In this document: in pieces, positions 7,186-45,857 of the stretch
Numbering within the stretch: position 1 is the stretch's first letter
Layout of the letters: each line of letters opens with the position of its first letter
The notes under the pieces: generated by a model
What the model saw: the letters and a program-made list of their open reading frames with translations, nothing else
The model's database searches: none
Told to the model about the DNA's origin: nothing
NCBI GenBank assembly: GCA_017991395.1
Contig: JAGOQQ010000004.1
Location: 32,430 to 96,429 of the forward strand
Direction of reading: 5' to 3'
DNA from: Minisyncoccota bacterium
GTDB taxonomy: Bacteria; Patescibacteriota; Minisyncoccia; Phycocordibacterales; UBA9973
DNA length: 64,000 bases
Position numbers and translations under genes: made by a program

Positions 7186-7240
7186 ATGAGGTGATAGTGG
7201 AACGTAAAGCGTAGAACGTAGAACGCAAAATACAGGATTT

Positions 7241-7270: not shown

Positions 7271-7395
7271 AAGGTTTTTTAATCCTTCTCATTTTGAACG
7301 CGCATAAAATTCTGCTGAATTTTTGCTATGCTCGGCTCGTCAGCCTTGCGCAATGTTCAAAATGAGAAGGATTCTGGTTTGTGGAATCCAAAGCT

Positions 7396-7436
7396 TTACC
7401 CCTCCGCCCTTCGGGCACCTCCCCTCTAGGGGAGGC
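7396..7436 (+). repeat. GC-rich two-hairpin repeat element, copy A
   Basis: ttacccctccgcccttcgggcacctcccctctaggggaggc. One of six family members in the window. Confidence 0.7.
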
Positions 7437-7657
7437 TATAAACCCAATTTACCACTTTCCCACATATTTGCAAGAATTCAGCGGTCACGAAATACTTGTC
7501 AAAACCGTAAATATGAATATAATAGATGTATATCAGTTTATGAAAAGTTTTTAAATACTTTTAGCTTTAAAAAGTACAAGAGAAATTATTAGGAATTTAT
7601 AGCATTTTGTATTTAGCCAGTTGCTAGGCGCTAGATGCTAATTGCTGAAAAAAATAT

Positions 7658-27862: not shown

Positions 27863-27917
27863 CTCAATTAAAACCCACCCGAAAGGGTGGTTTTTTGAAA
27901 CCGATTCGTATGGAATA

Positions 27918-27962
27918 AGCCTGACCTAGAGGGGAGGTGTCACGAAGTGACGGAGGGGTAAG
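27918..27962 (-). repeat. GC-rich two-hairpin repeat element, copy B (reverse orientation, variant stem GTCAC/GTGAC)
   Basis: Reverse complement reads cttacccctccgtcacttcgtgacacctcccctctaggtcaggc. Confidence 0.65.
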
Positions 27963-28317
27963 AATTAACAACCTCAGTTATCTTTTCACAACACGAATCA
28001 AAACTTTCTATAATTTCATTGTTTGTAAAACGAATTACTTGAACTCCAAGATTTTTCAAATCTTTACTTCTGTGTTCATCATAATTTTTTGATTTATCTG
28101 AATCAAAGTGTGAATCTCCATCAATCTCGATTGCGAGCATGATTTTAGGAATATAAAAATCCAAAATATAGTTTCCGACGGGTCGCTGTCGAATACATTT
28201 TGGTTCTAGGTTTCGCAAAAAATCGTACCAAATTTTTTTCTCACAAAATGTCATATTCTTTCTCAAATCTTTTGCGCGACTTTTGAGGTTTGAATTGTAG
28301 TTTTTGTAGGATTTCAT
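27940..28317 (-). CDS. DUF559-type endonuclease-like protein (restriction-endonuclease fold)
   Basis: LAIEIDGDSHFD is the hallmark EIDG..H of DUF559/Vsr-like domains. Confidence 0.55.
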   Translation of the reverse strand: MKSYKNYNSNLKSRAKDLRKNMTFCEKKIWYDFLRNLEPKCIRQRPVGNYILDFYIPKIMLAIEIDGDSHFDSDKSKNYDEHRSKDLKNLGVQVIRFTNNEIIESFDSCCEKITEVVNSYPSVTS

Positions 28318-28323
28318 AAATAC

Positions 28324-28366
28324 TTTTACCCCTCCGCCCTACGGGCACCTCCCCTCAAGGGGAGGC
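28324..28366 (+). repeat. GC-rich two-hairpin repeat element, copy C (stem GCCCtacgGGC)
   Basis: ttttacccctccgccctacgggcacctcccctcaaggggaggc. Confidence 0.7.
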
Positions 28367-28451
28367 TTGGGCTCACTAAAGTCTAAAGACTAGCGACTAA
28401 AGACTGCATTTTTCTTCTTTCAGCTTTAGACTTTTGGCTTTTAGCTATGCC

Positions 28452-29066: not shown

Positions 29067-29167
29067 TGAAAGTTGTCAGTTGTTAGATTTTAGTTGTTAG
29101 TAGATACTTTAGATATAATAATATATTTTTTTCACTTTTTTTAAGAAAAAAATTCTTATAATTCATT

Positions 29168-29209
29168 CTTACCCCTCCGCCCTTCGGGCACCTCCCCTCA
29201 AGGGGAGGC
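29168..29209 (+). repeat. GC-rich two-hairpin repeat element, copy D
   Basis: cttacccctccgcccttcgggcacctcccctcaaggggaggc, followed by a degenerate word array (atccgcg/atccgtg/tctagt). Confidence 0.7.
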
Positions 29210-29294
29210 TTCATACATCCGCGACCATCCGTGGCTCATATCCGTGTAAAATCCGCGTCTAGTCAGCGTTAAATCTGCGTCTAGTTCGCGACTG

Positions 29295-38957: not shown

Positions 38958-39075
38958 TTTACCCCTCCGTCCTTCGGACACCTCCCCTCATAGGGGAGGC
39001 AAGAATCCAGGATTCTCGTGCTCAATGTTCTAGTGTCCCGTGATTTTACGCTCTACGCTCCACGTTCTACGTATT
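38958..39075 (+). repeat. GC-rich repeat element, copy E, with a 75-bp extension shared with copy F
   Basis: tttacccctccgtccttcggacacctcccctcataggggaggcaagaatccaggattctcgtgctcaatgttctagtg...cgctctacgctccacgttctacg. Confidence 0.7.
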
Positions 39076-39121
39076 ACGAATCTTCCTACTTCCTACTTAT
39101 TACTTACTACCAACTAACTTC

Positions 39122-42918: not shown

Positions 42919-44064
42919 ATGAAAATCGTATTCACTGGTGGAGGGACCGCAGGACATTTTTATCCAAACATTGCGATCGCTGAAAATTTCTACAATCTAG
43001 TTGAAGCTGAGAACATTGTTTCAGTTGAACTTTTTTATTTTTCTGATACTGAGTACGACAAGTCAGCACTATATGAAAACAAAATGAAATTTGTGAAAAT
43101 TCCTGCAGGAAAGCTTCGAGTAGGTGGAGGCGGGATTCAAAACTTTTTTGATATGTTTGTCACTGCATACGGAATACTCATTGCTATCATGAAGCTCTAT
43201 TCAGTGTATCCCGATGTGGTAATGGCAAAAGGTGGATACGCGAGTTTTCCTACGCTTTTTGCAGCACGCTTGCTCAAAATTCCAGTGGTCATTCACGAAT
43301 CAGATTCTACACCAGGACGCGTGAGTCAATGGGCAGGGAAGTTTGCACAACGAGTCGCAGTCTCATACGAAGACGCAGCAAAATTTTTTAATCCTGCAAA
43401 AGTTGCACTCACAGGACAACCTATTCGCGAAGAATTGAAGAGTCCTGCAAGTGAAGGCGTGTTCGATTTCTACAAACTCGACCCAACAGTTCCCGTAGTT
43501 CTTGTGCTTGGAGGTTCACAAGGTGCAGAAATCATCAACAACGCTCTTTTGGACGCACTTCCAACTCTTTTGCCAAAGTATCAAATCATTCATCAAACAG
43601 GCATGAACAATCTTGAGTCAGTCAAAGGACAAGCCGATATTACAATGGCAGACAGCAAAGATCTTCTTAGAGATCGATACCGAGCAATCGGATTTCTCAA
43701 CGTGCTTGGAATGCGGATGGCGGGCGGATCATCATCTGTGGTCATCACTCGTGCGGGTTCAACACTTTTTGAAATCGCATCATGGAATACTCCATGCATC
43801 GTGATTCCAATCACCACATCACAAGGTGATCATCAACGCAAAAATGCATACTCATATGCTCGTAGTGGTGGATGTGTCGTGATTGAAGAAGCCAATTTGA
43901 GTCCGGCGATTCTCGCACAAGAAGTAGAAAAAATTCTTGATGAAGAACCACGACGACTCAAAATGATTGAAGGTGCGAAAAGTTTTATTGGTGCAAACAA
44001 CGCAGGCCTTGTCATTGCACAAGAATTGCTCTCGATTGCACTGTCGCATGAGACGAAGGAATAA
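42919..44064 (+). CDS. murG: UDP-GlcNAc:MurNAc-pentapeptide-undecaprenol GlcNAc transferase
   Basis: MKIVFTGGGTAGHFYPNIAIAE is the MurG G-loop, and the C-terminal GT-B domain is present. Confidence 0.9.
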   Translation: MKIVFTGGGTAGHFYPNIAIAENFYNLVEAENIVSVELFYFSDTEYDKSALYENKMKFVKIPAGKLRVGGGGIQNFFDMFVTAYGILIAIMKLYSVYPDVVMAKGGYASFPTLFAARLLKIPVVIHESDSTPGRVSQWAGKFAQRVAVSYEDAAKFFNPAKVALTGQPIREELKSPASEGVFDFYKLDPTVPVVLVLGGSQGAEIINNALLDALPTLLPKYQIIHQTGMNNLESVKGQADITMADSKDLLRDRYRAIGFLNVLGMRMAGGSSSVVITRAGSTLFEIASWNTPCIVIPITTSQGDHQRKNAYSYARSGGCVVIEEANLSPAILAQEVEKILDEEPRRLKMIEGAKSFIGANNAGLVIAQELLSIALSHETKE

Positions 44065-44065
44065 G

Positions 44066-44195
44066 GGACGTTGTTCATAGAACATGGAGCGTAGAGCGTA
44101 AACATAAAACACTAGAACGTTGAGCACAAGAACCCTGGATTCAAGCCTCCCCTAGAGGGGAGGTGCCCGCAGGACGGAGGGGTAAAAAGTAATAA
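44066..44195 (-). repeat. GC-rich repeat element, copy F (reverse orientation), with shared extension
   Basis: Reverse complement reads ttttacccctccgtcctgcgggcacctcccctctaggggaggcttgaatccagggttcttgtgctcaacgttctagtg... Confidence 0.7.
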
Positions 44196-44204
44196 TGAGC
44201 GGCG

Positions 44205-44400
44205 GCCAAGGCCGCCGCTCATTTGCATCTCATCCCCTCCTTGTTGAGGAGGGGTGCCTGGAAGGCGGGGTGGTGTATTTCCCACCTCTCCTAGACAGGA
44301 GAGGAAGACACGAAGTGACTGGTGAGGTGGATTGAATACTCTATACAAATACACCGCCCCGTCGCTTCGCGCCACCCCTCCTTGAAAAGTAGGGGAAAAA
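44205..44400. ncRNA. Cluster of GC-rich nested hairpins (candidate structured RNA or repeat hotspot)
   Basis: GAGCGGCGGCCaaGGCCGCCGCTC; CCCCTCCttgttgaGGAGGGG; nested GGTGTATTT/CCCACCTC/CTCTCC...GGAGAG/GAGGTGG/AAATACACC; CCCCTCCttgaaaagtaGGGG. Confidence 0.35.
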
Positions 44401-44537
44401 ATACAACTAAATACTGAACCCATCTTCTTTCAGCTTTCAACTTTTAACTTTCAGCTCTCCCCATGTTCGCGTAAGTCAGCGTCTAGTCTGCGTTCAGTTA
44501 GCGTTTAATCTTTTTTGCGTTATAATTGAAAACACAG

Positions 44538-45857
44538 ATGAACAAACGCGTTTTTATCTACACCTTCAAGCTTCTTTCAATCATTGCACTTATTTCTATG
44601 AGTGCATTCTCTGTCATAGACAAAACTCCACGCACTCTCTTTGCCCAATCAGCAGACGAACTTCGCGACAAGATTGATCAACAAAACAAAGAAATCGAGC
44701 GTCTCGAAGCAGAGATCAAACTCTATTCGGCTCAGCTCGTTGAGACAGGCAAGCAGGCAAACTCTCTTCAAAACGAAGTCAAAGCACTCGACCTTTCTCG
44801 AAAAAAACTTCTGACCGACATCAAGGTCACCGAAAACAAAATAAACGGAAAGAATTTGCTTATCAAAAAACTCGAACTCGAAATTGGAAAGAAAAGTAAT
44901 TCTATCGATACCAACACGACCGCAATCCACGAAGGTATTCGCCGTGTCAACGAACGCGATCAAACAACTCTCATTGAAGCATTACTCAACAATGGCGACT
45001 TTTCTGATATATGGCGTGAAGTAGACGAAACACTTATGGTTCAAGAAAAAGTTCGCGGGCATATTGTCGTACTTCATGAGGTCAAAGGCGAACTCGAAGG
45101 AGACAAAGATGAAGAAACAAAAGCAAAACGCGAACTCGAAGGATTGAAAAGTGAACTTGGTGCACAGAAAAAAATTGTCGATCAGAACACTGCCGAAAAA
45201 AATCGCTTGTTGAAAGAAACAAAAAACCAAGAATCAGCATACAAAGCACTCGTTGCTCAAAAGCAAGCACTCAAAGCACAATTTCAAAAAGAAATCGACG
45301 AATTTGAATCAAAGCTTCAATACATTCTCGATCCAAGCAAGCTTCCAGATGGTGTAGTGTTTTCATGGCCACTCGACAATGTCTTTGTCACACAACGATT
45401 CGGTATCACATCTTCTTCAGGCCGTCTATACGCTTCTGGTTCGCACTCTGGTATCGACTTTAGAGCATCAGTCGGAACTCCGGTCCGCGCAATGGCAGAC
45501 GGTGTTGTGGAGGGAATTGGAGACACAGATCTATCGTGTCGTGGAGCATCATTTGGAAAATGGGTATTTATCCGATACAACAATGGACTTGCGAGTACAT
45601 ACGGACATCTTTCACTCGCAACAGCCCAAGAAGGTCAAAAGGTTCGTCGTGGCGACATTGTGGCGTATTCTGGAAACACTGGATACTCTACTGGTCCACA
45701 TCTTCACGTGTCAGTGTACGCAAGTGAAGCGGTGAAGGTGGATTCAAAGCCATCAATAAGCTGTAAGGGAAAAATTTTCCGTCAGCCTCTCGCAGCCCGC
45801 ACTGCATACCTCGACGCACTCCAATATCTTCCACGAAACTTCGCTTCGAAAGAATAA
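44538..45857 (+). CDS. M23 (LytM) metallopeptidase with N-terminal coiled coil (EnvC-like)
   Basis: HSGIDFRASVGTPVRAMADGVV, YGHLS, and GNTGYSTGPHLHVSVY (HxH). Long heptad-rich N-terminus, and the track start at 44526 is a TTG. Confidence 0.85.
   Translation: MNKRVFIYTFKLLSIIALISMSAFSVIDKTPRTLFAQSADELRDKIDQQNKEIERLEAEIKLYSAQLVETGKQANSLQNEVKALDLSRKKLLTDIKVTENKINGKNLLIKKLELEIGKKSNSIDTNTTAIHEGIRRVNERDQTTLIEALLNNGDFSDIWREVDETLMVQEKVRGHIVVLHEVKGELEGDKDEETKAKRELEGLKSELGAQKKIVDQNTAEKNRLLKETKNQESAYKALVAQKQALKAQFQKEIDEFESKLQYILDPSKLPDGVVFSWPLDNVFVTQRFGITSSSGRLYASGSHSGIDFRASVGTPVRAMADGVVEGIGDTDLSCRGASFGKWVFIRYNNGLASTYGHLSLATAQEGQKVRRGDIVAYSGNTGYSTGPHLHVSVYASEAVKVDSKPSISCKGKIFRQPLAARTAYLDALQYLPRNFASKE

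Follow-up and report, generated by a model that had tools for sequence, protein, structure and literature searches.

The 461-nt spacer between murG and an M23 peptidase gene (positions 44065-44525) of a Minisyncoccota bacterium is most probably a patchwork of DNA repeats, selfish or structural, and not a gene. It lies in the 64,000-nt stretch of contig JAGOQQ010000004.1 analysed here, which we call the window, and it houses a GC-rich tract that an earlier note on this DNA had presented as a candidate structured RNA or noncoding RNA gene or, alternatively, as a nest of repeat elements. The alternative is supported, since the tract is composed of units of a repeat with nine copies in 64 kb. The headline claim is not, as no Rfam family was matched, the repeat is dispersed and lies in either orientation, both strands fold, and modules of the tract have been swapped; as an RNA-gene candidate, the tract is downgraded. 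Based on its sequence, the unit appears to be a long-loop variant of the repeat named successively BoxC in Escherichia coli, potential intrastrand triplex (PIT) element (Hoyne et al. 2000) and triplex motif (TM), or TMECO (Holder et al. 2015, PMC4666352). Similar units bracket genes for DUF559 proteins, Vsr-like endonucleases of the PD-(D/E)xK class, and this coupling is the part of most interest.

The unit occupies 37-44 nt of one strand and consists of a pyrimidine (Y) arm, a loop of 3-5 nt, the complementary purine (R) arm, a second loop of 12-16 nt and, finally, the mirror image of R, as in GGGGAGG...GGAGGGG, AGGAGGGG...GGGGTGGT and AGGAGAGG...GGTGAGGT, with T permitted opposite A. A purpose-written finder, which demanded perfect Y / R / mirror-R blocks with arms of at least 7 nt, returned seven units in the window, three of them in the tract, and none in each of 20 dinucleotide shuffles. 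The window total is nine units in six intergenic spacers and on both strands, four in the tract and five elsewhere. Six copies, one of them partly degenerate, form a family termed M1 and share the 40-nt motif (A)GCCTCCCCT-nGA-GGGGAGG-TG-[hairpin]-C-GGAGGGG-TAA.

Mirror symmetry is the requirement of an antiparallel purine-motif third strand (G*G:C, A*A:T, T*A:T). Because the last block is a mirror and not a direct repeat of R, it cannot pair with Y in antiparallel fashion, and a Watson-Crick switch that pairs the Y arm with the second G-run was rejected on this ground. In loci chosen by their DUF559 protein, and hence unbiased for the DNA motif, 81 perfect mirror G-runs were counted versus 38 perfect direct ones. 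Asymmetric mirror runs are also found in isolates of Deinococcus (GGGGGAGG/GGAGGGGG), Sphingomonas (GGGAGGGGA/AGGGGAGGG), Neisseria (GGGAGAGAG/GAGAGAGGG) and Azospirillum.

The hairpin stem in loop 2 of M1 units covaries across genomes, with 3-4 pair types per position and a C:G closing pair in 15 of 17; in the 13-nt loop-2 class, pairs 3-11 and 4-10 are each GC, AT or TA. A GNA triloop caps this stem in all six window units scored (6/6) and in 25 of 39 units of other genomes, and GNA triloops closed by C:G are a stable DNA mini-hairpin motif whose stability depends on that closing pair (PMC3201870, PMC13037366). The resemblance to d(GCGAAGC) mini-hairpins extends to short G/C stems closed by C:G around GAA, GCA, GTA or GGA, including a literal GCGAAGC at 44364-44370 on the minus strand. 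Unlike those mini-hairpins, the loop-2 hairpins are embedded as linkers within a larger unit, where they may be similarly stable. Because the units are mirror-symmetric, carry triloops of the DNA type and show no preferred orientation, and given the biophysics published for TMECO, we infer that the relevant fold is one of single-stranded DNA. The units would act as DNA and, when single-stranded during replication, repair or transcription, may form hairpins and possibly G*G:C triplexes. With such structures, the locus would easily undergo slippage, deletion and exchange of modules, and murG or M23 expression would be affected, if at all, as a side effect of the transcription of highly stable hairpins.

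Within the tract, the order is word array, unit A, GC palindrome, unit B, unit D, unit C (inverted) and further arrays, with A, B and D perfect on the plus strand and C degenerate (Table 1). The structure that the earlier note had placed at 44196-44520 is real, but its start was set too late, as an extra unit (44144-44186) and a word array from about 44066 precede it. Unit A is 93-95% identical to the copies at 7395-7437, 28324-28369 and 29169-29211, and its loop 2 forms a mini-hairpin with one C·A mismatch. Together with part of the word array (44109-44186), it matches 38958-39036 on the minus strand at 90% identity over 79 nt, in an alignment that continues further 5'. Every sequence element that the note had quoted is present at the locus. 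Thus GAGCGGCGGCCaaGGCCGCCGCTC belongs to the perfect 14-bp palindrome (44194-44207 / 44210-44223), which has no second copy in the window and folds as DNA with -17.5 kcal/mol (z -6.0). Likewise, CCCCTCCttgttgaGGAGGGG at 44234-44254, in unit B, is the sole window match to CCCCTCC-N3-12-GGAGGGG, a pattern with no match in 100 shuffles. The loop-2 hairpin of unit B is GCC/GGC, a T stands opposite A in its mirror run, and as DNA the unit folds with z -4.8 and the 3' G-run unpaired.

Units B and C form an inverted repeat of 42 nt at 74%, which resembles a REPIN, a doublet of repetitive extragenic palindromes (REP), and encloses unit D. Beyond the orthologous locus, neither B/C nor the GC palindrome has a copy among 131 fetched loci. 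In unit C, the quoted CCCCTCCttgaaaagtaGGGG (44375-44395) is present but imperfect, its 3' arm reading GTAGGGG where the strain represented by GCA_030917345.1 (L001) has a perfect GGAGGGG; there, unit C is a perfect triplex motif (CCCCTCCT / AGGAGGGG / GGGGTGGT). Unit D is the core of what had been called a multi-stem nested structure. Outer arms at 44266-44280 / 44347-44361 (15 nt, 93% complementarity) and the inner hairpin CCTCTCCT-agac-AGGAGAGG stand, while the proposed outer pair CCACCTC / GAGGTGG overlaps the inner stem at 44286-44288 and the two cannot both fully form.

Table 1. Repeat units, palindrome, word arrays and DUF559 cassette in the window (Y, pyrimidine arm; R, purine arm).
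Feature	Position	Strand	Description
Left word array	44065-44143	+	Degenerate, stop-codon-rich 7-nt words TAGAACA / TGGAGCG / TAGAGCG; outer flank of unit A
Unit A (M1 family)	44144-44186	+	Y CCTCCCC 44146-44152; loop TAGA; R GGGGAGG 44157-44163; loop 2 TGCCCGCAGGAC 44164-44175; mirror GGAGGGG 44176-44182
GC palindrome	44194-44223		Perfect 14 bp, AATGAGCGGCGGCC-AA-GGCCGCCGCTCATT; 100% complementary; one module with unit A
Unit B (variant family)	44232-44276	+	Y CCCCTCCT 44234-44241; loop TGTTG; R AGGAGGGG 44247-44254; loop 2 TGCCTGGAAGGC 44255-44266; mirror GGGGTGGT 44267-44274
Unit D	44285-44328	+	Y CCTCTCCT 44285-44292; loop AGAC; R AGGAGAGG 44297-44304; loop 2 44305-44320 with CAC-GAA-GTG; mirror GGTGAGGT 44321-44328
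Unit C (inverted partner of B, degenerate)	44354-44402	-	Y CCCCTAC 44395-44389; R GGAGGGG 44381-44375; loop 2 TGGCGCGAAGCGAC; mirror GGGGCGG 44360-44354
Right word arrays	44403-44525	+	CTTTCAA x3.9 at 44427-44453; GTCAGCG TCTAGTC TGCGTTC AGTTAGC ... at 44467-44505
M1 unit	7395-7437	-	Between PaaX-like gene and dnaK
DUF559 cassette	27925-28369	-	Open reading frame 27940-28317, Pfam DUF559 8e-24; M1 units at both ends
M1 unit	29169-29211	-	Between dnaB and recR; word arrays on both sides
M1 unit + word array	38958-39036	-	Between scpA and scpB, antisense to both; compensatory change in loop-2 stem (GTCC/GGAC)

The tract differs between strains that share the neighbouring gene. MurG is identical in the six contigs retrieved; in L001, however, the stretch 44103-44226, which comprises unit A and the GC palindrome, is swapped for a hairpin module unrelated to it. 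L001 keeps units B, D and C, and its right array is longer by 52 nt. In another contig (L006, SRR24011145), unit A and the palindrome (loop TTT) are present and are preceded by a different word array. The module boundaries show no target-site duplication. This evidence of variability comes from a single locus, at which the module differences between near-identical strains fit structure-driven instability. Independent Logan assemblies of the same organism break inside units, as is typical for repeats: four contigs (L002-L005) stop at 44166, within unit A, and those with the CorA gene that neighbours the DUF559 cassette (L128-L130) start at a unit, at about 27964. The replacement module in L001 (4185-4255 of that contig) is the hairpin GTCATCCTGAACTTGTTTCAGGATC, and M1 units of Salegentibacter (L030) and of Alistipes/Rikenellaceae (L015, L024) are closely followed by similar 'GTCATCC...' sequences. 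These 'GTCATCC...' hairpins may represent a second dispersed hairpin family.

The M1 family extends far beyond this organism. The pattern GAGGGGAGGTG-N7-13-CGGAGGGGTA was found at 39 loci in GTDB contigs (one genome per species), in Bacteroidaceae, Rikenellaceae, Lewinellaceae, Salegentibacter, rumen Clostridia, Selenomonadaceae, Sphingomonas, Pirellulales, Verrucomicrobiaceae and Nomurabacteria, that is, in Bacteroidota, Firmicutes, Proteobacteria, Planctomycetes, Verrucomicrobia and bacteria of the candidate phyla radiation (CPR). The CCTCCCC Y arm is conserved in the 39 loci though it lies outside the search pattern, and the orientation of the units relative to neighbouring open reading frames (ORFs) is mixed. 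A Selenomonadaceae metagenome-assembled genome (MAG) carries three M1 units in tandem with a 61-nt period (L009, 3348-3497).

The closest published relative is TMECO, with the consensus CCCTCNCCC-N3-6-GGGNGAGGG-N3-GGGNGAGGG and 23 copies in E. coli K-12, all of them intergenic and without strand bias, five sites being inverted pairs (PMC4666352). According to the same study, G/C-rich triplex motifs occur in more than 260 genomes, the isolated TMECO strand forms a triplex in vitro, and TMECO loci are far more variable between strains than control spacers (PMC4666352). The window units likewise place three blocks on one strand, Y, R and mirror R with A matched by A or T, and units A, B and D are perfect over 7-8 nt. 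Their stems, 7-8 nt without mismatch, conform to the stem rule of ITxF, which allows 6-15 nt and, from 7 nt upwards, no more than a single mismatch (PMC4666352). The units are also G/C-rich, intergenic, present on both strands, multi-copy and above shuffles, and include inverted pairs (B/C and 28324/27925); raised strain variability is shared as well, seen here at one locus taken by itself. In contrast to TMECO, the arms measure 7-8 nt and not 9, the host is a member of the CPR (Paceibacteria), and the units, which come with 7-nt word arrays, bracket DUF559 genes, whereas no association with neighbouring genes is reported in the published work.

The link to DUF559 is already visible in the window. 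There, the upstream M1 unit of the DUF559 gene (28324-28369) lies on the gene strand, 7 nt from the ORF, and is of the same repeat family as unit A; the downstream unit (27925-27961, plus strand) is inverted, partly degenerate and overlaps the stop codon. A terminator-like hairpin, CCACCCTTTCGGGTGG, with a T-run follows the gene at about 27873-27893. In 80 metagenomic DUF559 loci, fetched by protein alone, a C-arm/G-arm hairpin occurs within 250 nt upstream in 64 and downstream in 60, at 4.8 per kb versus 0.31 per kb elsewhere. The flanks are inverted repeats in 45 of 63 DUF559 loci (score above 20 shuffles), and perfect triplex-type units are present in 68 of the 80. Within 0-100 nt of the gene, unit density reaches 8.5 per kb on the upstream side and 7.1 per kb on the downstream side; it is 0.17-0.25 per kb more than 500 nt away and 0 in locally shuffled sequence.

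Cultured bacteria show the same link. Units or unit-like C5/G5 repeats lie by DUF559 in six of six isolate replicons (Deinococcus, Sphingomonas, Neisseria, Azospirillum, Synechocystis and Picosynechococcus), and on Deinococcus pDEIPR03 an inverted unit pair is 18 nt and 3 nt from the gene. In E. coli K-12, the DUF559 gene ycjD (L126, NC_000913.3 1351030-1351830) ends in a degenerate BoxC/TMECO-like unit; next come a duplicate of about 50 nt of the gene's 3' end and, about 170 nt downstream, a complete TMECO, CCCTCGCCCCTCTGGGGAGAGGGTTAGGGTGAGGGG. An unrelated 17-bp palindrome is found upstream of ycjD. Dispersed units are of the same subtype as the gene-flanking ones in the window, in the rumen MAG RUG14020 (L011, L021, L033) and in E. 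coli. The profile of DUF559 matches PDB 3HRL (1.6e-31) and the homing endonuclease I-Bth0305I (3R3P, 7e-5). Additionally, 'DUF559 domain-containing protein' is enriched, with an odds ratio of 14, among predicted targets of programmed inversion (PMC9881135), which independently echoes the flanking inverted repeats seen here. The literature on DUF559, ycjD and BoxC that was searched, most subscription journals excepted, reports no link to triplex motifs.

The repeat family would spread and persist together with DUF559 genes bracketed by inverted units, and, by analogy to REP and the REP-associated tyrosine transposase (RAYT) (PMC3116915, PMC3337134), DUF559 would act on the units. We tentatively suggest that BoxC/PIT/TM repeats may be the cognate repeats of DUF559 genes, in a REP/RAYT-like or homing-type system across phyla in which DUF559 would recognise folded hairpin or triplex DNA and drive both spread and instability. 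The tract would then be a gene-less cluster of DUF559-cassette-type ends, of a long-loop subtype not listed before. A cis-regulatory leader of DUF559 was considered and rejected, as only one of the 39 motif-selected loci is adjacent to such a gene and orientation is mixed. Many database DUF559 proteins bear N- or C-terminal extensions (SPPCQGRVPEGRVG, PSPPLRGPSLKGG, PLIRGE, SPDKGRxGGV, TPPNLPFEGR and PPCQGRVPEGRVG; examples are P0003, P0013, P0024, P0056, P0066, P0067, P0073, P0091, P0110 and P0112) that equal translated flanking units, and these extensions are probably gene-call artefacts.

Several observations weigh against these interpretations. Loop 1, at 3-5 nt, is within the published loop limits for triplex motifs (1-6 nt in ITxF, 0-10 nt in Hoyne et al.; PMC4666352), whereas loop 2, at 12-16 nt, is beyond them and contains its own covarying C-GNA-G mini-hairpin where TMECO has 3 nt. 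Since the loop-2 limit is exceeded, the window units are to be regarded as a long-loop variant and a non-canonical member, and since ITxF loops are at most 6 nt, this variant would fall outside the ITxF database. Only 7-8 triads are available per unit, and for TMECO no stable triplex was detected in vivo by dimethyl sulfate footprinting (PMC4666352). The covariation of the palindromes may stem from hairpin-templated repair and not from selection, and an RNA-level role or a secondary effect on mRNA stability may exist. With regard to DUF559, the link is a positional correlation, a DUF559 gene stands directly beside the unit in only one of 39 motif-selected loci, and unit orientation relative to the gene differs between lineages.

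A more specific possibility, which we regard as doubtful, is that the tract is a non-autonomous mobile element resembling a miniature inverted-repeat transposable element (MITE) or a REPIN. Inverted pairs such as B...C would be its ends and the DUF559 cassette its autonomous form, and DUF559 would nick or cleave folded units and drive copying or homing, in analogy to RAYT transposases and REP/REPIN. The tight bracketing of DUF559 by inverted units in the window, the 80 metagenomic loci, E. coli and the six isolate replicons speaks for it, as do the shared subtype of dispersed and gene-flanking units, the profile matches to 3HRL and the homing endonuclease 3R3P, the enrichment among predicted inversion targets (PMC9881135), the RAYT/REPIN precedent (PMC3116915, PMC3337134) and the position of E. 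coli ycjD at a site that carries eefRABCD in other phylogroups (PMC12817139). However, no target-site duplication was found, and of the features of a MITE the inverted pair B/C is present while a second whole B-D-C element is found neither in the 64-kb window nor in the 131 loci. Contigs with the RecR/CorA neighbours were all of the same strain or broken at the repeat, so that the retrieved contigs offer no informative presence/absence polymorphism of the cassette. Moreover, unit orientation relative to the gene varies, DUF559 has no known biochemical activity on such substrates, Holder et al. report no association of TMECO with mobile elements (PMC4666352), and the M1 pattern has no match in 2.9 million viral contigs.

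Comparison with REP and bacterial interspersed mosaic elements (BIME) and with REPIN-RAYT systems (PMC3116915, PMC3337134, PMC3733652) shows both common and distinct features. Common to both are short, dispersed, intergenic, imperfect palindromes that occur as singles, inverted doublets and mosaics, and a single-copy nuclease-type gene between inverted repeat copies. The bracketed gene here, by contrast, encodes a PD-(D/E)xK DUF559 protein and not a Y1 (IS200/IS605-like) RAYT, which was searched for in the window; the window unit has a third, mirror block, and the mobility of the window units is putative. A GTAG or CGTC end tag, a feature of REP (PMC3733652), is found in none of the aligned M1 copies, whose invariant block opens with GCCTCCCC and closes with GGAGGGGTAA.

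Action at the RNA level, as a structured noncoding RNA or as a 3'-untranslated or intercistronic element whose hairpins would shield murG mRNA against 3' exonucleases or tune M23 expression in the way proposed for REP/BIME, is unlikely. ViennaRNA was used for DNA and RNA folds; triplexes are outside its model, and the third block is unpaired in the predicted folds. As plus-strand RNA, the spacer folds very stably (-185.6 kcal/mol, z -8.2; 0 of 100 shuffles equal), yet the minus strand is nearly as strong (z -6.6). As DNA, the segment 44228-44406 forms one long hairpin (z -6.3). No terminator was found on the plus strand between murG and the tract or within 44065-44525, terminator-like sites there being on the minus strand only, and for this reason the tract is probably co-transcribed with murG. 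Loop-2 stem covariation and the resemblance of GGAGG in the G-rich runs to a Shine-Dalgarno sequence are also compatible with such a role. The earlier note had named missing conservation of the stems in relatives as an objection to its RNA proposal; as the stems covary across phyla, that objection does not apply, and covariation by itself is no indication of RNA.

The homology searches gave the RNA proposal no backing. A scan of the whole 64 kb with Rfam 15, of the kind that the note had suggested, returned no match at gathering thresholds; at E <= 10, matches in the region were at chance level only and involved microRNA models (best E 0.077; mir-335 with 20.8 bits versus a gathering threshold of 64). 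ARAGORN detected no tRNA or tmRNA. Units occur in either orientation relative to genes, for example at 38961-38999 antisense between scpA and scpB, and unit A with the palindrome is dispensable in a strain with identical MurG. The conserved purine run of the mirror block lacks a Watson-Crick partner, RNA is reported not to form purine-motif triplexes (PMC4666352), and C-GNA-G triloops are a DNA-stability motif. Finally, PIT elements (TMECO) have neither promoter nor terminator activity in E. coli (PMC4666352).

That the tract terminates transcription, or acts as an insulator, between murG and the gene for the M23 peptidase is very improbable: strong GC hairpins do follow the gene directly and the palindrome at 44194-44223 was scored terminator-like, but on the minus strand only, the lone plus-strand site (44585-44606) lies inside the M23 ORF, no plus-strand hairpin is followed by a T-run, four stacked units far exceed the need, the same units lie upstream of genes and antisense to operons, and terminator activity is lacking in PIT elements of E. 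coli (PMC4666352). The long minus-strand ORF (44112-44423), which had been called an artefact, is one: it has no Pfam match and reads ...TPPRLPGTPPQQGG..., a low-complexity translated repeat, and a protein-coding function was rejected.

Stop-codon-rich arrays of 7-nt words (one of 11 nt) were observed at 7200-7225, 28375-28446, 29071-29101, 29255-29285, 39047-39110 and 44427-44453. Of the 12 arrays of period 7 in the window, seven are at most 200 nt away from a unit; this zone makes up 4.4% of the window (binomial P 2e-7). The array at 44427-44453 was recovered by Tandem Repeats Finder with period 7 and 3.9 copies, in agreement with the earlier description of word arrays. The word GCGTCTAGTC is common to the right array and to the array at 29255-29285, beside the unit at 29172-29208. 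As DNA, the arrays do not fold (z +0.5). Four rumen Clostridiales MAG loci (L018, L033, L036, L044) have 7-nt arrays (GGCTGCT, CAGTCGG, GAAATGA) after M1 units.

The genes on either side of the spacer are conventional. By profile search, the product of the upstream gene (42919-44064) is MurG with GT28 N- and C-terminal domains, as previously named. Local G+C peaks at 0.57, and the G+C of the window is 0.37, where the earlier note had given roughly 35% for the genome. The M23 ORF begins at 44526, with a probable ATG at 44538. TATAAT (44521-44526) lies 11 nt before this ATG and no Shine-Dalgarno sequence is visible; the M23 mRNA may lack a leader or have a very short one, and a promoter scan returned no full sigma-70 match. 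The 64-kb window holds no tRNA gene and no Rfam match at the gathering threshold despite its dense housekeeping genes (dnaK, dnaB, recR, scpAB and a mur/ftsW cluster).

In summary, repeats of the triplex-motif/BoxC type exist in CPR bacteria, and their long-loop-2 subtype would be missed by published rules that restrict loops to at most 6 nt, so that censuses of the motif are probably incomplete. The units fragment metagenome assemblies and give rise to spurious ORFs and protein extensions of the form TPPxLxGTPPxxGG, and their recognition is useful for annotation. The origin and function of BoxC/PIT/TM repeats have been unexplained since the 1990s. The bracketing of DUF559 genes across phyla provides a testable handle on the roles of these repeats and of DUF559 proteins, including YcjD of E. 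coli.

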